From IMG/VR virus record IMGVR_UViG_3300031990_000008, positions 1 through 36,355 of that record: a DNA stretch of 36,355 nucleotides, one strand, 5' to 3'. This document shows positions 6,088 through 34,889 of this stretch, in pieces. A program made the position numbers and the translations under genes. The notes below the pieces were generated by a model. That model was not told the origin of the DNA and did not search any database. It was given only the letters and a program-made list of their open reading frames with translations. The DNA is from a virus (taxonomy: Duplodnaviria; Caudoviricetes). Position 1 is the first letter of the stretch. Every line of letters begins with the position of its first letter.

Positions 6088-6489
6088 ATGACCACGATGA
6101 CGCTCACCCTGCCGTTTCCTCCGAGCGTGAACGCGATGTGGCGAACGCCGCGCACTGGCCCGCTGGCCGGCCGGACCATGCTGTCGCAGGAAGGGCGCGC
6201 ATACCGCCTGCAGGTCCAGCAACTGGTGCAGGTTGCCAAGGCTGCCAGTCAGCTCAGCGAGCGCTTGCACGTCGTCATCGAGGCGCGGATGCCAGACCGG
6301 CGCAAGCGTGACCTCGACAACCTGCCCAAGGCTGTGCTCGACGCCCTGACCCATGCCGGTGTCTGGCTCGACGATGGCCAGATCGATGACTTGCGGGTGT
6401 GGCGATCTGCCAGGTTTGGTGGTCAGGTCATCGTGACCATCCGGGCCGTGGCGAGTCCGCAGGCCTCCCTTCTTGAGGGGGCTGGATGA
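6088..6489 (+). CDS. rusA: RusA-family Holliday junction resolvase
   Basis: LPFPPSVN start; PDRRKRDLDNLPKAVLDAL; DDGQID. Confidence 0.95.
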   Translation: MTTMTLTLPFPPSVNAMWRTPRTGPLAGRTMLSQEGRAYRLQVQQLVQVAKAASQLSERLHVVIEARMPDRRKRDLDNLPKAVLDALTHAGVWLDDGQIDDLRVWRSARFGGQVIVTIRAVASPQASLLEGAG

Positions 6490-9243: not shown

Positions 9244-10989
9244 ATGTCAGGCATCAGCGCAGTTCAGACCGGTTCGGGGTGGGACGTCGACGACATCCAG
9301 GCACCCCTGTATGACGCTCAGAAGAAGCGGGCTTCACGTCGCGCCCAGCACAAAGCTGACGCAGCCAAGGCCGCCACAACGCAGGCGCGTGCGTGGGCAT
9401 CTGGCATCACGGTCCAGCCCTGGGAAATGCTGCGCCTCGGTGATGGAGCAGGGGCGTCTGCGACTGCATCTCTCACGTCCAACGCCGTCAGCTCAATCGC
9501 TGTGACTGCCGGCGGCAGCGGATACACCAAGGTTCCGGCAGTCACGCTCAGCGGCGGTGGTGGCACTGGTGCAACCGCGACAGCCGTCCTCACGAACGGC
9601 GTCGTCAGCTCGATCAATGTCACGAACGGCGGCAGCGGCTACAGCACCGCGCCCACTGTTTCCATCGCCGGCAGCAACGGTGCCATTGTGATTGCTGCCC
9701 AGGGAACTGCTGGTGTGACCGGCGCGACTGAACCTGTGATTGCCGCCGGCGCCTCCCCGGCGGCAATCACCGACAACACTGTGAACTGGTGGCCGCTTCA
9801 GGAGCAGACCCGGACTGCTCCAATTGGTGTGCCTGTGCCTGTGATCACAGACAACGCTGGCGCCTCGGCTCGCACGCAGTACGGCATCAACGCGAACCCG
9901 GGCTTGTTTGAGCAAGCGAGCGCGCCGAACGTGTTTGTCATCGCCGGGAGCGGGCAAACCGCCCGCACCATCGCCTGGACCATCAACGACGGTTCATCGA
10001 CGGATTTCGGTGCAGGCGCTGGCCGCATCACGCCTTACCGCACGATTGCTTTCGTGGTTCCTGACGATGTGATCGACATCGGCTACTTCGCCACTGTGGG
10101 CACCTACATCAACAACCGGCCCATCATTGAGGTGGATGGGTATCCAGCCATGGAGGTGCCCCTTGTCCCTGCGGCGTTTGGTGGATCGCGTCACTTGAAG
10201 CTCACCATTCCTGGCGGCCGTCGTGATCGACTGATCCGCATCCGCTGCTCTGGATCCTTCAACTTGCAGTATTTCGGCCTCGCTTCGGATGTCGCCCCCG
10301 TGCGGCCCCCTGTGCGCGGCTTGACCGCCGTGATTCCTTCTGACTCATTTGGCAACACCGAAATGCCCAATGCCTCCGAAGACCACCTGAACCTGTCCTC
10401 GCGAGTTGCCCGTCGTCTCGGCTTTCCAAACTGCGTCATGGCAGTAGCCGGCGGCACGAGCTATTCGTTCGATGACGCCGGATCGGGTCGACAGTCGCTC
10501 AAGAAGATCATGGCCTCGCATGACTTCAGCGCGTTCGGCGCCGACATGTTCATGCCCATGCACGGCTACAACGCTGGCGGTAGCGGTGTGCTTCCTTCCG
10601 TCGAGTGCGCTGACGCTTTGTCGTGCTGGTTGGGTTTTCGCGCAGCCGGACCCACTTCACCTGTTCTTGTGGTCAACGTGCATTACCTGAAGCCTGGCGT
10701 GGTGGCCGCGATGACCACCATGCGCGATGCGCTTAAGGCGCAGTTCCTGGCCTGGGCCGACCCGAACAGCGCGATCATCGACCCGACGGATGGCTCGATC
10801 ACGCTGGGTGATGGCACGGTCGTTCGCGCCGCCGACTCGGCTTGGATCAACGCGACCAATGCCGCCTGGGTGCTGCCACCTTCCGGTGGCGTATTCGACG
10901 GCGCCCACTTGTCGATCGCCGGTCGTGCGTTCTACGAGGACAAGCTCGTGGCTGCGGCGGACTTGGCTCTGAACGCGCTGGGATTCTGA
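9244..10989 (+). CDS. 581-aa protein with duplicated GGSGY beta-repeats and a C-terminal SGNH/GDSL-like esterase domain
   Basis: Two ATATAxL...VSSIxVTxGGSGY repeats; SGNH blocks SDSFG, GGTSY, HGYN, DGAH; TAAGGAG RBS. Confidence 0.7.
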
Positions 10990-29277: not shown

Positions 29278-29334
29278 TGGACTGCGGCCCTTGTCGCAGA
29301 AGGTGTGTTGGCCTGCCGATGTCCGTCACTTGCG

Positions 29335-29379
29335 TTCACACGGCAGGGGTCGCAGGTTCGAACCCTGCACCGCCCACCA
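29335..29379 (+). other. att core: 3' fragment of tRNA-Val(CAC), from anticodon loop to CCA
   Basis: TTCACAC-GGCAG-GGGTC-GCAGG-TTCGAAC-CCTGC-ACCGCCC-ACCA; no D arm or 5' acceptor strand upstream. Confidence 0.9.
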
Positions 29380-29383
29380 ATGA

Positions 29384-29445
29384 AATCAAGCACTTAGCCT
29401 CACGGCTAGGTGCTTTTTTCTTGCCTGTACGGACTTTGTACGGAC
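29384..29445. promoter_or_regulatory. IHF consensus plus TGTACGGAC x2 (arm-type-like sites)
   Basis: AATCAAGCACTTA 29384-29396 matches WATCAANNNNTTR; repeats at 29426-29434 and 29437-29445. Confidence 0.6.
29388..29418 (+). terminator. Intrinsic terminator after the tRNA 3' end
   Basis: AAGCACTTAGCC-TCAC-GGCTAGGTGCTT plus T run. Confidence 0.85.
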
Positions 29446-29456
29446 AATGCCTTTTC

Positions 29457-30491
29457 TCAACGGCCTCGACCTCCGATGTAGGCGTTGATGATTTGAGTTC
29501 TCCCGTGCCCTAGTTTTTCCGCGATAGCCTGCCGTGCGGTCAGGTCCAACGTGCGTTCCACCGCATGCCCACCATTGACCGGTGCGGGCGATCCCGTCGC
29601 TTCCTGGTATTCATCCGCCGCATACTGGTGCCGTAGGCCGTGCGGCACCACGCCCAAGGCCTTCTTGGTCACGCCGAAGCGCTCCATGACATACCGCAAA
29701 TGCCTGATGGCCTGAACCAACGTCAGTTGTGGATCACTGATGCTGTCGTGCTCTCCAATGACCAAACCCTGAGCCAACTTGATGGCCTGCAGCCGTGCGT
29801 CGGTATCGATCGGCACGTAGCGTTTTCGCCCGCCCTTCGTTCCCCGATGCGTGAAGAGGTATAGCGCGGTGTCGCAGCCTGCCTGACCAGCCTGCACGGC
29901 GGTCAGCACGTCCGCATGCGGGCGCAGCATGCAGGCTTCCTTGAACCGCAATCCAAATGCCTGCATCAGCCGCAGTGAGGCTGCCGCATGCAGATCATGG
30001 CGTTCGACCTGCTCCAGCACCTGATCGACATCGACGCCACGTTCTCGCCAGCTCTTTGGCGTGATCGCGACGTAGCTGCGTGTGATCAACGCCTGGTCGT
30101 CGAAATAGGCGCTCAGCGGTTTGACCAGCTTGGGCTTGGCGATCCATCCCGCAAAGGTCGTGAGGAAGCTGTGGTTCTTCTGCAGCGTTGCCGCGCCCAG
30201 CTCGCCACGCTCAGCCCGCTGGCGCCAATCGGCCATCAACAGGTCCACATGCCGCCCGCTGAATGAGCGCGGATCAAGCTTGAAGCATTTGACTGGGTTG
30301 TCTCGCAGGAACGAAAAAATGCGGAAGCAAAACTGCCTGCGCTCCTCCATCGTGGCGTGCGACACGCCTTTGCTTTTCGTGGAGTGGCGCCAGTTGTGGC
30401 GCTCCAGGATCAGCGCCAGAACGTATTTCCAGCGCTGTGGCTGAACGGGTAGCCTGTCCAGTTCAACAGGCGGCGTGTGAGTCTTGGTCAT
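29457..30491 (-). CDS. Tyrosine recombinase (integrase-domain protein, Integrase_1-like), about 344 aa
   Basis: Full catalytic set: FGLRFKE (R), GTKGG (K), HGLRH (HxxR), LGHGR (H), AYIG (Y); start chosen at MTKTHTPP. Confidence 0.9.
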   Translation of the reverse strand: MTKTHTPPVELDRLPVQPQRWKYVLALILERHNWRHSTKSKGVSHATMEERRQFCFRIFSFLRDNPVKCFKLDPRSFSGRHVDLLMADWRQRAERGELGAATLQKNHSFLTTFAGWIAKPKLVKPLSAYFDDQALITRSYVAITPKSWRERGVDVDQVLEQVERHDLHAAASLRLMQAFGLRFKEACMLRPHADVLTAVQAGQAGCDTALYLFTHRGTKGGRKRYVPIDTDARLQAIKLAQGLVIGEHDSISDPQLTLVQAIRHLRYVMERFGVTKKALGVVPHGLRHQYAADEYQEATGSPAPVNGGHAVERTLDLTARQAIAEKLGHGRTQIINAYIGGRGR

Positions 30492-30539
30492 GATCAATCC
30501 ATTTCGTCCAGTCGAGGGTTGAAGGGGTTGAGAGAGGCG

Positions 30540-31470
30540 CGTGCATCCCATCGCGCGCAAGGTCAGGATTCGGTTGCGAACAAAGCCGCAGCCAGGCCAG
30601 TCGTAAAAGTGAACGCCGTGCACACGGTGTCAGGCACACGTGGCTGCTCGCTCGGGGCGAACCGCAGATCGACCGGTCTGGCCGGAAGGCTGCGCAGCAA
30701 AGTTGCACGGGCGTCACCCGTACGGGATGCCAATCAAGGCACCCACATCGAACGCCGCCGCCAGACCATCTAATGGCACCGAAGCCAACGCGGTGCAGGG
30801 TCTGTTCACGCCAATCCGCAAGCTGTCGGTCGGGCCGACATGACAGGGGATGCTCGAAGCAATGCGTGAGGCGGGGCGAGGGGGATCACGGGCGTCGCGA
30901 GAGCGCGCGCCGTTTGCCAGGGCCTCTATGGGCACAAGGCAAGCATCGTCGGGTCAAGACCGACGTGGATCCACGTTGACACGCAGGCATGCGTGTCGCA
31001 AACAAGCTGGCCACCATCTTGCTGATGGCCAGTGGGGACACTTCGGACTCAAGGTCCAGCGTGACATGGCGTCACGACTCCAGGGCTTCCTTTGGCGACC
31101 GATGCGCCCGGTGTGGAAGCTACCGGCTTGACGCCATCAAAGCATGCGCTAGGCGGCACCTCAATGCAAGCGCAAAAAGTGCCGTTATCCCGCCATTACC
31201 CCTGATCGCCGATGACTGGGTCTGCACGCCCTTGGGGTTGACAAGGCTTCGCGATACCTCTCTCTCCGAAACCGGTTTGGCCAAGCGAAATGCGCCCGAT
31301 TGCAGGCTGACCGCAATCAGACCATCCATGCGATTGACCCCGCCGTGGATGAGCGTGGTCCGTGCGCATTTGGGGCTGAGCCGGACTGGGTTCGAGGCCA
31401 TTGATCCGGCTGATGCCGAAAGCCACCCCATTCAGCGCCCTTTGCCAGTGGCTGGCTGTCCCGCCTTTGC
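30540..31470. ncRNA. Hairpin-dense non-coding region; candidate large structured RNA or ssDNA element
   Basis: More than 15 adjacent or nested stems read by eye; no convincing ORF. Confidence 0.45.
31141..31169 (-). promoter_or_regulatory. Candidate sigma70 promoter TTGCAT-17-CATGCT facing the recombinase
   Basis: -35 at 31164-31169 and -10 at 31141-31146 on the minus strand. Confidence 0.4.
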
Positions 31471-31508
31471 GCACCCTCATCAGCATCTGTTCTTCTTTGG
31501 GGACTTTC

Positions 31509-32537
31509 ATGAGCATCGTGCGCGCCATTGATGTTGGATACGGCATCACCAAGTACATCCGCCGAGTTGTCGGCGACTGCATCGAATGCGGCAGCTTTTT
31601 GTCGATGGCTGAGTTCTGTTCGAGCGACACCACCATGCAAGGGTTGGGTGGTCGGCGCGACACCGTCGCGGTGCCAATGGGCCCTCACTTCTACGAGGTT
31701 GGGCCAGACATTGAACTGGCCCTTGAGCCATGGCGGTCAACGTTGAAGGGCGAGGATTTCATCACCACGCCTGAGTACCTGGCCTTGATGCGCGGCGCGC
31801 TGTACTACATGAACGTCGAGGTCATCGACCTGCTCGTGGTGGGCCTGCCGGTGGCCTATTTTGCGGACAAGAAAGACAGCCTCGTCAAGCTGGCCGAAGG
31901 CGAGCACGCGGTTGGGCGGGGCCGGAAGGTTCTGGTCAAAAGGGCGCTTGCCGTGGCGCAGCCGCAAGGGGCACTGGTGACCTACGCAGCACAGCAAGGC
32001 GTGCTCGATCAAATTCAGCACCAGGACAGCCTGATCATTGACGTGGGTACCCGCACCTTTGACTGGGTATCCACACGCGGCATGAGGCTGTTGATCCGCA
32101 AGAGCCATTCGGTTGATCGGGGCATCAACAACATGCTGCGCATCATCGCGCGCGAGATATCGCGTGACATCGGTGCGGACTACCAGCATCTGGATGCCAT
32201 CGACTTGGCGCTCCGCAAGGAACGTCCACTGACCTTGTATGGCAAGCCCTATTCCATCGAGAAGTTCAAGCCTTTGGCCATGACCGTGGCTCACCAAGCC
32301 GTGGGCGCGATGCTCAGTCAAATCGGAGATACCCAACGGTTTGACAACGTCGTGCTCACAGGCGGGGGCGCCCAGATATTCAAGAAGTACATCAAGGAAG
32401 CGCTCCCCCGGCACAGCTTGCTGGAGTTGGCCGAGCCCCTTTATGCGAACGTGCGCGGCTTCCAGCTTGCGGGACAGGGGCGGGTTGAGGCCGAGGCAGG
32501 ACTTGATGCCGTGGCCCAGGTGGAGCAGCGGCGGTGA
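31509..32537 (+). CDS. ParM/StbA-family actin-like ATPase (PRTRC system protein D-like)
   Basis: Phosphate-1 AIDVGYGITK; LVVGLP; QPQGA; phosphate-2 IIDVGTRTFD; VLTGGGA; ANVRGF. Confidence 0.9.
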   Translation: MSIVRAIDVGYGITKYIRRVVGDCIECGSFLSMAEFCSSDTTMQGLGGRRDTVAVPMGPHFYEVGPDIELALEPWRSTLKGEDFITTPEYLALMRGALYYMNVEVIDLLVVGLPVAYFADKKDSLVKLAEGEHAVGRGRKVLVKRALAVAQPQGALVTYAAQQGVLDQIQHQDSLIIDVGTRTFDWVSTRGMRLLIRKSHSVDRGINNMLRIIAREISRDIGADYQHLDAIDLALRKERPLTLYGKPYSIEKFKPLAMTVAHQAVGAMLSQIGDTQRFDNVVLTGGGAQIFKKYIKEALPRHSLLELAEPLYANVRGFQLAGQGRVEAEAGLDAVAQVEQRR

Positions 32538-32773
32538 CGCGCCGTGCCGATGAATCCGAGCTGGTGATCTACGTGGCGATTGACCAGGACAGTGCGCCGC
32601 TGCTGCACGCCGACCTGGTTCGCTTTCGCAAGGGCCCGAAGCGCGTCCAGCGGCTGCGCATGCTGGCACTGCAAGGGCTGATCTTTGAAACTGGCGCACA
32701 GCCCAAGCCGCCGCGCCCGCAAGGCGGCACCTCCGCCGCTGGTGGCGTCTTCAGCGAGCCAACCGACGACTGA
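32534..32773 (+). CDS. Small partner of ParM (putative ParR-like adaptor)
   Basis: GTGA overlap with parM; KGPKRVQRLRMLALQGL; flexible acidic tail. Confidence 0.65.
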   Translation: MTRRADESELVIYVAIDQDSAPLLHADLVRFRKGPKRVQRLRMLALQGLIFETGAQPKPPRPQGGTSAAGGVFSEPTDD

Positions 32774-33212
32774 TGTGTGCCCGGCATCGCTGCTGTTCTT
32801 GGGCAATAGAGTCTGCGACAAGCTGGCCTGGTGCACCCCTCGGGCGTTTCGCAGCGAATGGATGCGACGGCGGCCATGGGTAAGCACACCGAAGGCCGAG
32901 CCAGGGCAATAAAGTGCGCGACATCAAGGGCCGGCGCGTGACCGCTTCAGGCTGAGCTGCGACATTGGGGCTATCGATGCGAACAGCAGCCCCCGCGCGA
33001 AGCAGCCATTCGAGGACCGCAATCTTGCTCGACCGCAGCACCTCCACCACCGGCCACTCGAATGCGACCGACTGACGCAGGTCGCCAACAGTCTCGATCT
33101 CGGCGTCACCGGCAGGCGGCGAATGGAAGATTGGACAGGCGATACTCATCCGTCTTTTGACATTGATCAGCGACCTCGTACATGCAAAACAATGATGCCC
33201 AAGGAGGCTCAA

Positions 33213-34889
33213 ATGATTGCCATTCATCCGCAATACCTTACGTTATCCAAGCTGCTCGCCGGACGTTTATTCCGCATTCCAGAGTATCAACGTGCTTACA
33301 GCTGGACGAGCAAGCAGCGGACCGACCTGTTCAGTGACATCGACAAGACGCATGCAAAGGGCAAGGACGCGGGCCACTTTATGGCCGCGACAGTGTGCCT
33401 CCGGCGAGCAAAGCAAGTCTTAGGAACCGATGAGTTCCAGGTGCTTGAGGTGGTTGACGGGCAGCAGCGCCTCACAACGCTAATCATCTTGTTCAAGGCT
33501 ATCGAGCTGACTCTCGATCGGGCCGTTGGAGTAGAAGCCAGACTCGCCGATGAGATCGCAGGATTGTTGATCAAGCAGGACGGCGACGAGTTGCTACTTT
33601 TGCAGACAAACCACGACAGCAGTCACCACTTTGAGAGGTTTCTACGCGAGGGGACGAGGCCTGAAGTCGACACGGCAACGACTCTAGCGGACCAAGAACT
33701 GCTCAAAGCCATATCTGAGTGCATGGCTTACGTTGATGGCTGGAAACGGCGTCAGGCGGGCCTTTCGTCGCTGTTGGCGCTTCTTAAGAATCGGCTCCAC
33801 TTTCTACTTCATGAGATCGACGAGGAGAACGCGGTCTACACGGTGTTCGAAGTGCTGAATAGTCGTGGGTTGGATGTGTCTTGGATCGACCGATTGAAGA
33901 GCATATTGATGGGCGCAGCATTCGAGTTGAAGGCCGCCGCAAATAAGACCCTGATCAAGGACCTTCATACAAAGTGGCGCGACATCTACGTCACCATAGG
34001 TCTGCGACAGGGCATGAGCACGGAGGCCCTACGATTTGCTGCAACCCTCCGTACGCCAGACATTCCTAGCAGGCCGTTGGGTGAAGAAAGTTCGGTAGAG
34101 CTGCTGCGTGAGCAGGCCCCAGACGCTAAGGGGATTCGAGACGTTTCTGCTTGGTTGTTAAAGGTAGTGACGGCGCGCGATGCCGTCGCGGCCAATCCAA
34201 GAATCAACGCGGTCACTAGGATTTCCCAAGCACGGCTGTTAGCCGTGGCCATTCACTTGCGAAGTGACTTCAGACCGAAGCAACGTGACGAGCTACTTGC
34301 GAAATGGGAGCGCGTGACCTTCCGGATATACGGAATGCTCTCGAACGACGCGCGTACACGGGTAGGTGACTACGTTCGCCTAGCATGGCGAATCGTCAAT
34401 GATGACCTAGCACCAAGGGAGATTAGTCGAGAACTGGGGGAGATCGGCAGTGACTTCTCGATTTCGGATGCGGTTGATGCAATGCAAGCGAGGAACTGCT
34501 ACGAAGATTGGGGTGAGGAGTTGAGGTACTTCATGTACCGATATGAGGAGCACCTGTCAGCAAAGAATCGTCAGAAATTCAGTAATGAGCAGTGGGAGCG
34601 TATTTGGATGGCAAGTGTTTCGGACTCCATCGAACACATTTGGGCCCAGAGCAAGGCTCCGGAGAAATCTAAGCACCGCCTTGGAAATCTGGTGCTCTTG
34701 CCACCTCGATTGAACTCCAGCTTGCAGGCTAAGGAGCCGGCGGACAAGGCTGACGACTACAGAAAAACTGGCCTGCTCATCGCTCAGGAGGTCGCTGATG
34801 CCATCGGTGCAGGCAAATGGTCGACTAAGGCCGTGGCGGCCAGGGAAGATGCCTTGCTCAAATGGGCGAAGTTGGAATGGGCTGACTAG
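33213..34889 (+). CDS. DUF262 + DUF1524 (HNH) protein, GmrSD/SspE-like defence nuclease
   Basis: IPEYQRAYSW, VVDGQQRLTT, FEVLNSRG, SIEHIWAQ...LGNLVLL...LNS; AAGGAGG RBS before ATG 33213. Confidence 0.92.
   Translation: MIAIHPQYLTLSKLLAGRLFRIPEYQRAYSWTSKQRTDLFSDIDKTHAKGKDAGHFMAATVCLRRAKQVLGTDEFQVLEVVDGQQRLTTLIILFKAIELTLDRAVGVEARLADEIAGLLIKQDGDELLLLQTNHDSSHHFERFLREGTRPEVDTATTLADQELLKAISECMAYVDGWKRRQAGLSSLLALLKNRLHFLLHEIDEENAVYTVFEVLNSRGLDVSWIDRLKSILMGAAFELKAAANKTLIKDLHTKWRDIYVTIGLRQGMSTEALRFAATLRTPDIPSRPLGEESSVELLREQAPDAKGIRDVSAWLLKVVTARDAVAANPRINAVTRISQARLLAVAIHLRSDFRPKQRDELLAKWERVTFRIYGMLSNDARTRVGDYVRLAWRIVNDDLAPREISRELGEIGSDFSISDAVDAMQARNCYEDWGEELRYFMYRYEEHLSAKNRQKFSNEQWERIWMASVSDSIEHIWAQSKAPEKSKHRLGNLVLLPPRLNSSLQAKEPADKADDYRKTGLLIAQEVADAIGAGKWSTKAVAAREDALLKWAKLEWAD

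Follow-up and report, generated by a model that had tools for sequence, protein, structure and literature searches.

The 1017-nt gap between a gene for a tyrosine-recombinase-fold protein and a gene for a ParM-like actin, located near one end of a virus record, raises the question of what a densely folded and seemingly non-coding stretch does there. The window, i.e., the whole 36,355-nt stretch analyzed, is a linear virus record consisting of a prophage up to the 3' part of a tRNA-Val gene, with the recombinase-like module behind it. Positions 1 to 29380 belong to the prophage and encode, among others, the head-tail connector (PF12236), capsid (PF19821), a DnaB/AAA helicase, and lysozyme; the large prophage open reading frames (ORFs) at 9244, 17551, 19573, 21756, and 24620 had no Pfam match. 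The tRNA-Val part (29331..29379, plus strand) marks the right end of the prophage and a probable attachment site of an island. Similarity to loci L003, L011, L080, and L081 stops at 29331, these four run on into the remaining tRNA, and L011 has the whole tRNA-Val at the corresponding position; no whole tRNA was detected in the window by ARAGORN. A terminator-like hairpin (29388..29415, plus strand) follows the tRNA part. A tandem 9-bp repeat beside the tRNA end (29426..29445, no strand), found by sequence inspection, probably represents integrase arm-type sites; in genome G002, the two ends of the island likewise carry a tandem repeat.

The module itself starts with the gene for the 344-aa protein P0001 on the minus strand (29457..30491; PF12835, E 2e-12). 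Beyond the gap, the plus strand encodes the ParM-like actin, annotated as PRTRC system protein D (31509..32537; TIGR03739, 348 bits with a cut-off of 215; PF17989 and PF21522), then a 79-aa partner (32534..32773), which stands behind parM in homologous loci and is probably a ParR/StbB-like adaptor, and a GmrSD-type restriction nuclease assigned by Pfam (33123..34889), a variable cargo. The partner had no Pfam match, and its nearest named Atlas cluster, PF10784 with a score of 0.85, is a lead only. Similarity to close relatives stops at 32790 to 32990, ahead of the nuclease gene. In the window lineage (L003, L011, L080, and L081), the recombinase-like gene abuts the tRNA-Val flank directly and has a divergent C-terminal tail (window 29457 to 29480); in the sister copies L005, L007, L053, and L083, the gene is followed by cargo and a P4-type integrase.

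Judged by sequence, P0001 is likely a relaxase of the MpsA family. Residues R182, K219, H284, R287, H329, and Y338 are invariant in 61 homologues. As a stand-in for the SGI1 backbone, the Salmonella record L162 was chosen on the basis of the residues published for MpsA, of P5, and of the neighboring genes: its protein P0123 has R162, H247, R250, H251, and Y319, the MpsA residues of PMC6414798, with P5 upstream and traH nearby. P0001 and P0123 (MpsA) share 27% identity over 291 aa (E 1e-16; HHalign, 99.4%), and PF12835 was found in both. The AlphaFold model of P0001 (pLDDT 90) matched the Xer, lambda Int, and Cre recombinases at 13 to 18% identity, and a sequence search of solved structures with P0001 returned only an XerC-like protein (E 0.088). 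PF12835 is described as a DTR-like integrase signature, and SGI1 mpsA has been named an atypical relaxase (PMC10484663). MpsA is called only a suspected relaxase elsewhere (PMC13635750), and nicking has been demonstrated for MobK (PMC8152469).

The conservation of the fold was analyzed in loci fetched via the protein. Among 157 loci, 133 had enough upstream DNA and 114 of these, as well as the window, contained both anchor motifs; the removal of near-duplicates left 91 sequences, of which 47 belong to clade A, the window type, and 44 to clade B. Covariation was scored as the number of tree branches where a predicted pair changes on both sides yet stays paired, and was compared with 5 to 12 nulls each, which preserve the tree, the root, and the per-column change counts and on every one of which RNAalifold was rerun. 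In the core (30885 to 30590), 29 compensatory double changes were counted in the 47 clade A sequences versus 2.0 ± 1.2 in the nulls, and 40 in the 44 clade B sequences versus 6.1 ± 2.8. The 5' part gave 11 events versus 2.2 (A) and 33 versus 4.2 (B). Little or no covariation was present upstream of the promoter (2 versus 1.1 in A, 4 versus 1.9 in B), and four coding controls of equal length yielded 7, 4, 4, and 4 events. In the 3' domain alignment A3, comprising 39 sequences of both clades, 96.3% of cells were paired under a structure derived from that same alignment, compared to 35 to 43% in slid controls, and 20 of 30 pairs had changed on both sides. A home-made all-pairs G-test (APC, tree null) at E ≤ 1 returned no pair in clade A and a single one in clade B, outside the structure. 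The folding energy compared with shuffles, which an initial annotation of this DNA had suggested as a check, gave a mixed outcome: it was marginal for the whole kilobase (z of −1.74 on the plus and −1.76 on the minus strand, with 0 of 20 shuffles as good), no better than shuffles for the 296-nt core (−0.46 and −0.55), and −2.7 for the 596-nt predicted transcript, both strands alike; the real backing for the stems comes from the sequence comparison.

All 15 stem and promoter motifs listed in that annotation were found in the interval, in or close to their places. The fold had been proposed to span the whole kilobase, and this holds for one part of it: conserved structure occurs within the gap only at 31135 to 30540, where it covaries, while the ParM-side 230 nt or so, i.e., the parM leader (31280..31508, plus strand) with the proposed multibranch at 31288 to 31371 and hairpin at 31379 to 31411, showed no conserved structure and no covariation in any of four groupings. 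The stems at about 30960 to 31042, including the GGGA loop, also drop out of the conserved fold, as this lineage-specific stretch of the 5' array is missing or unrelated in distant homologues. The absence of a credible ORF was upheld: for none of the 7 window ORFs is the reading frame preserved by more than 2 of the 8 distant homologues from clade A. The structured element at 31135 to 30540 is real and apparently undescribed. No Rfam match was obtained in the window (E ≤ 0.5), and the literature covered, which is incomplete and stops short of the supplement of PMC5737381, holds no account of this RNA in Betaproteobacteria or of arrayed CNNGA loops. An unnamed motif in that supplement, which is presumed to describe EFASI and others, could overlap the fold.

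The fold is likely formed on the minus strand, reading into the recombinase-like gene, to judge from most of the evidence. A sigma-70-like promoter, TTGCAT-17-CATGCT, lies at 31141..31169 on the minus strand; it scores below the threshold of a consensus scan, and its pattern TTGnnn-17-nAnnnT is kept in 82 of the 91 homologues. Covariation sets in just behind this motif. After a one-sided change, the pair was kept on the minus strand in 83 of 161 cases in clade A (52%) and 153 of 259 in clade B (59%), versus 62 of 151 (41%) and 72 of 235 (31%) on the plus strand. In 22 representatives, cUUCGg loops numbered 10 on the minus strand and 0 on the plus strand. GNRA loops, from which the plus strand had earlier been favored, still point that way (11 plus versus 3 minus in the same representatives). 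Consensus energies were somewhat lower on the plus strand in clade A and lower on the minus strand for the clade B core. Upstream of the promoter lies a conserved DNA block without structure or covariation (31173..31269, no strand), with TCGGA-AGAGGTA-N12-GTCAACCCC and GGCAC-TTTTTG on the minus strand. It is a candidate oriT, operator, or divergent promoter, and a related block occurs in other PF12835 clades. Compared by eye, it fits neither a sigma-54 nor a sigma-70 reading.

The predicted structured RNA of about 595 nt (30540..31135, minus strand) is upstream of and co-directional with the recombinase-like gene. It opens with a 5' hairpin array of variable length (30890..31135, minus strand), a candidate oriT site by analogy with SGI1, to which the 11 clade A events given above belong and which is shortened or deleted in some loci. 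Core domain 1 (30751..30878, minus strand) is a long interrupted helix with two side arms, whose helices are 90 to 99% paired with 2 to 5 double changes each, except for one helix that is only 75% paired. Core domain 2 (30600..30745, minus strand), derived from alignment A3, is made up of hairpins and a multi-way junction with arms ending in CNNGA loops. On the minus strand, CNNGA-loop hairpins are strongly enriched, numbering 33 in clade A (9 sequences) and 50 in clade B (13 sequences) compared to 0.55 and 1.35 in shuffles; the motif was picked after inspection of the data, and the sequences counted are related and hence not independent. Such loops were found as well in more distant groups, 14 in 5 and 15 in 8 sequences, with 3 in 6 sequences of a 288-aa group; the 8 pMOL28-like sequences and SGI1 had none. 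Loops of this kind may be comparable to those of iron-responsive elements (CAGUGN) or TAR (CUGGGA).

Domain 2 also includes the terminal motif CACTTTTACG (30602..30611, minus strand), which is related to CACTTACC upstream of SGI1 mpsA. Of 41 distant loci, which fall in a few clades, 22 have the pattern CA(C/T)TT(TT)A(C/A)(G/C), set post hoc, within their last 420 nt, versus 1.7 for shuffled sequences and 2 for the opposite strand; the pattern is absent from the pMOL28 group. In clade A, the motif is predicted to lie within a long helix (favored in 46 of 47 sequences, with one compensatory change), whereas in clade B it is free, and this contrast counts against the mobilization reading given below.

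Several loci carry variants of the leader: L077 has the core and no 5' array, L106 lacks most of the promoter block, L069 has the 5' part and no core, and L086 a partial duplication. A second PF12835 subfamily (L174, L177, L182, L185, L186, L188, and L167) has a covarying leader of its own, with 19 and 17 compensatory events versus about 4 in the nulls for 7 sequences; this leader contains CNNGA loops and terminates in CATTTTTAAG, and the L174 leader had no Rfam match. In the 288-aa subfamily (L175, L176, L178, L179, L183, L193, L168, L190, L173, and L187), the last 300 nt covary (18 versus 2.1), and the leaders mostly terminate in CACTTACC, as SGI1 does.

The proposed tie between the fold and the recombinase-fold gene was supported. 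The core is present in 125 of the 133 assessable loci, 90 of which had helped to build the profile. Of the eight loci without it, five encode distant proteins (42 to 54% identity; weak model matches in L060, L073, and L075), L068 is an N-terminally incomplete match, L049 has no clear match, and L069 has lost the core. The full-length gene is retained in L069 despite this loss, which also counts against the mobilization reading. When two sets of 151 genomes were scanned with the RNA model, all 14 strong matches, several of them probably records already found by protein, adjoined the gene, compared to 0 of 6 weak matches. RNA type follows the protein tree (FastTree, rooted on MpsA, 4 of the 91 sequences being omitted as short matches): the clade B RNA forms one clade (42 of 42, support 0.96), clade A is paraphyletic, and RNA and protein identity are correlated with Spearman coefficients of 0.93 and 0.83. 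The closest copies of P0001 have 91 to 95% protein identity and include Aquabacterium records. No relative of P0001 was found in viral contigs, where a clade B motif was also without match, so the module is taken as host island DNA caught in a virus record and not as a phage feature. The gap sequence had no blastn match among plasmids.

Not recognized at first as any named family, the module indeed has a fold without Rfam match; its layout is, however, that of the SGI1 mobilization module mobSGI1, which comprises P5, oriT, sgm-sRNA, mpsA, and mpsB (PMC6414798, PMC9299015). In SGI1, a 650- to 700-nt transcript from P5 toward mpsA contains oriT, and its 3' part is the source of sgm-sRNA, which SGI1 transfer requires in trans and which extra MpsAB does not replace; the loss of 34 bp abolishes transfer (PMC9299015). 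These 34 bp map to L162 6304 to 6337 and cut the CACTTACC motif at 6300 to 6307; the deletion fits a role of the terminal motif without singling it out. The window module shares with mobSGI1 a homologous protein of the same Pfam family with the catalytic R-H-R-H-Y residues, a predicted co-directional leader with a candidate promoter about 645 nt from the gene (about 750 nt from P5 to mpsA in L162), a related CACTT..AC motif near the 3' end (RNA CACUU(UU)AC), and, in a relative, an island with a separate integrase and without its own type IV secretion system (T4SS). It differs in that the proteins are only 27% identical, the family is betaproteobacterial, SGI1 has no CNNGA loops, and a ParM partition pair is seen in the window module in place of rep, traN/G/H, or sgaCD. 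No RNA homology to the SGI1 leader was detected by nhmmer, and the best covariance model hit, 8.8 bits, covered one hairpin. A tblastn search for MpsB, which SGI1 needs, covered every locus as well as the window and matched L162 and L225 only. The window module thus resembles mobSGI1 by layout and protein family and is not a strict member. By this analogy, 31135 to 30540 is likely the betaproteobacterial counterpart of the RNA transfer factor of SGI1, with its own fold and repeated five-base loops.

Taken together, the covariation, its start behind the promoter, the linkage and co-inheritance of RNA and protein, the homology to MpsA, and the G002 island described below point to a mobilization module of a small genomic island, in which a folded RNA would act as cofactor of the MpsA-family protein in helper-dependent transfer; arguing by analogy, we put the probability of this reading at roughly 60%. 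A relaxase combined with an RNA cofactor or origin, one of the options in the initial annotation, is the best of them. The island would integrate via its own P4-type integrase. As in SGI1, the promoter at 31169 to 31141 would make a folded RNA of about 600 nt, which may bind the MpsA-like protein, with its recurring CNNGA loops and the CACUUUUAC motif at its end as candidate contacts, and could help the protein nick oriT or dock on the coupling protein of the helper. The predicted oriT would lie within 31275 to 30890, a putative helper conjugation system would move the nicked island, and ParM with its partner would only stabilize or partition the excised circle.

Alternatively, the fold might act as single-stranded DNA, as a large structured transfer or lagging-strand origin bound or nicked by the recombinase-fold protein, which we consider unlikely. 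The covariation is visible on both strands, and CNNG loops are stable in DNA hairpins, a point for the DNA form. Comparative methods cannot separate RNA from single-stranded DNA (PMC5737381), and conserved stem-loops occur in the oriT of SGI1 and its relatives (PMC6414798); the known oriTs of this protein class, however, measure 125 to 186 bp and not 600 (PMC8152469, PMC6414798), and the UUCG loops on the minus strand are RNA-stabilizing (PMC2864571). The absence of structure upstream of the conserved promoter motif, just behind which it starts, also counts against this reading.

Slightly less probable still is a long cis-regulatory 5' leader of the recombinase-like gene, acting, for example, by autoregulation via the CNNGA loops or by a switch of the terminal motif. 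The fold shares the direction of the gene immediately behind it, no terminator-like site was seen on the minus strand near the start codon within the interval, and the terminal motif has two alternative pairings, all of which would agree with such a leader. The distance of this motif from the start codon, about 110 to 120 nt in the window and reaching 400 nt in other clades, is nevertheless too large for direct gating of the ribosome site, and the equivalent SGI1 segment acts in trans, its loss not being rescued by extra MpsAB (PMC9299015).

The mobilization reading draws further on the island of genome G002, the source of L005. Located between trpE and trpG, this island measures about 20.8 kb, is bounded by a direct repeat of 27 bp, and carries, besides the module, its own P4-type integrase and defense cargo. 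Among the 20 ORFs scanned in this island, no relaxase or T4SS Pfam match was found. With its own integrase, flanking direct repeat, and no T4SS, it qualifies as an integrative mobilizable element; of the window copy, the record covers only one end, and its integrase is therefore not seen. Members of the P4-type integrase family were found in 40 loci, which represent 20 groups, and 22 of the 68 long loci have one; a tRNA adjoins the 3' end of the recombinase-like gene in only 1 of 60 loci scanned. This separate integrase speaks against the attC-like integrase substrate that had been put forward for the fold, which also differs from integron attC in forming one multi-domain fold per locus, with no cassette array in the locus maps. 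It bears in the same way on the very unlikely case of a P0001 unrelated to conjugation, which would serve as resolvase or integrase and use the structured region as recombination site or guide. In favor of this case, P0001 has the complete catalytic set and the recombinase fold, homologues occur on large plasmids, of which pMOL28 already carries a MOBH relaxase, and no P4-type integrase adjoins the gene in window-type copies; yet the ends of the G002 island carry other repeats, and the protein is homologous to MpsA. Chance folding of GC-rich intergenic DNA, in line with the weak single-sequence z-scores and the negative all-pairs test and true for 31280 to 31508, has a negligible probability for 31135 to 30540, where the core covariation, A3 pairing, and CNNGA enrichment contradict it.

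ParM, which had been considered a core part of the module, is an optional passenger: it is present in nearly all clade A loci and in 2 of the 42 clade B loci on the tree, so that the RNA occurs in most clade B loci with no ParM beside it. The pair resembles ParMRC/PRTRC systems in having an actin above the TIGR03739 cut-off and a small downstream partner, and the same divergent arrangement occurs on pMOL28 and on Janthinobacterium and Piscinibacter plasmids; in contrast to these systems, no parC repeat array was found and no other PRTRC genes were seen in the scanned neighbors. The commonest divergent neighbor, behind or replacing ParM, is a protein of 170 to 200 aa without assigned function (40 loci, 16 groups; L219:19264-19842), and the family of this divergent 192-aa gene had no named relative.

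Recombinase-fold proteins also nick oriT in pIGRK (MobK) and pCW3 (TcpM), upstream of the promoter of the respective gene (PMC8152469); MobK, likened here to P0001 by description only, differs in its size of about 28 kDa, and the available text of PMC8152469 describes no RNA for it. Upstream of a P0001 homologue in L224, STAXI (RF01728) matched with 63 and 33 bits; this locus also has the CACTTACC motif, and EFASI has been described near STAXI and integrases (PMC12370729, PMC2864571). Structured motifs upstream of integrase-like genes are thus shared, and structured leaders recur in the PF12835 family. STAXI is enterobacterial and consists of short pseudoknot repeats, in contrast to the window region, which had no Rfam match with the same tool that found STAXI in L224. 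The authors of the sgm-sRNA work consider it possibly the first example of an RNA within a conjugative complex (PMC9299015). A wider proposal, conceivable and still doubtful, is that PF12835 integrases are widespread ribonucleoprotein relaxases, each subfamily with its own large upstream RNA (sgm-sRNA, the STAXI/EFASI-bearing leaders, and the CNNGA-loop RNA) ending in CACUU..AC. In this view, the RNA would belong to the relaxosome as a structural component: its repeated loops would serve as a scaffold for several copies of the protein, and it would connect the nicked island with a foreign secretion system. The pMOL28 group, without CNNGA loops (0 in 8) and terminal motif, is excluded from this claim.

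The protein-plus-leader layout is found far outside SGI1, in environmental, non-pathogenic Betaproteobacteria, and the diversity of the family suffices for a secondary-structure model and two candidate contacts, the CNNGA loops and the terminal motif. Among plasmid records with a homologue, 133 of 219 are typed non-mobilizable, and islands or plasmids so classified that encode an "integrase domain-containing protein" may be mobilizable. On a 6.9-kb Acinetobacter plasmid (L226), the P0001 homologue is followed by a coupling-protein gene. L226 and the 4.8-kb Aeromonas plasmid L225, both typed non-mobilizable, have a homologue preceded by a long stretch free of genes, and L225 encodes an MpsB homologue (65%). 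Defense-rich cargo was seen in L219 and L220 (G002), L222 and L223 (G474), and L221 (G003), including type I restriction-modification, a RelA/SpoT domain, E2/ThiF/JAB, STAND NTPase, and HerA/PLD types.
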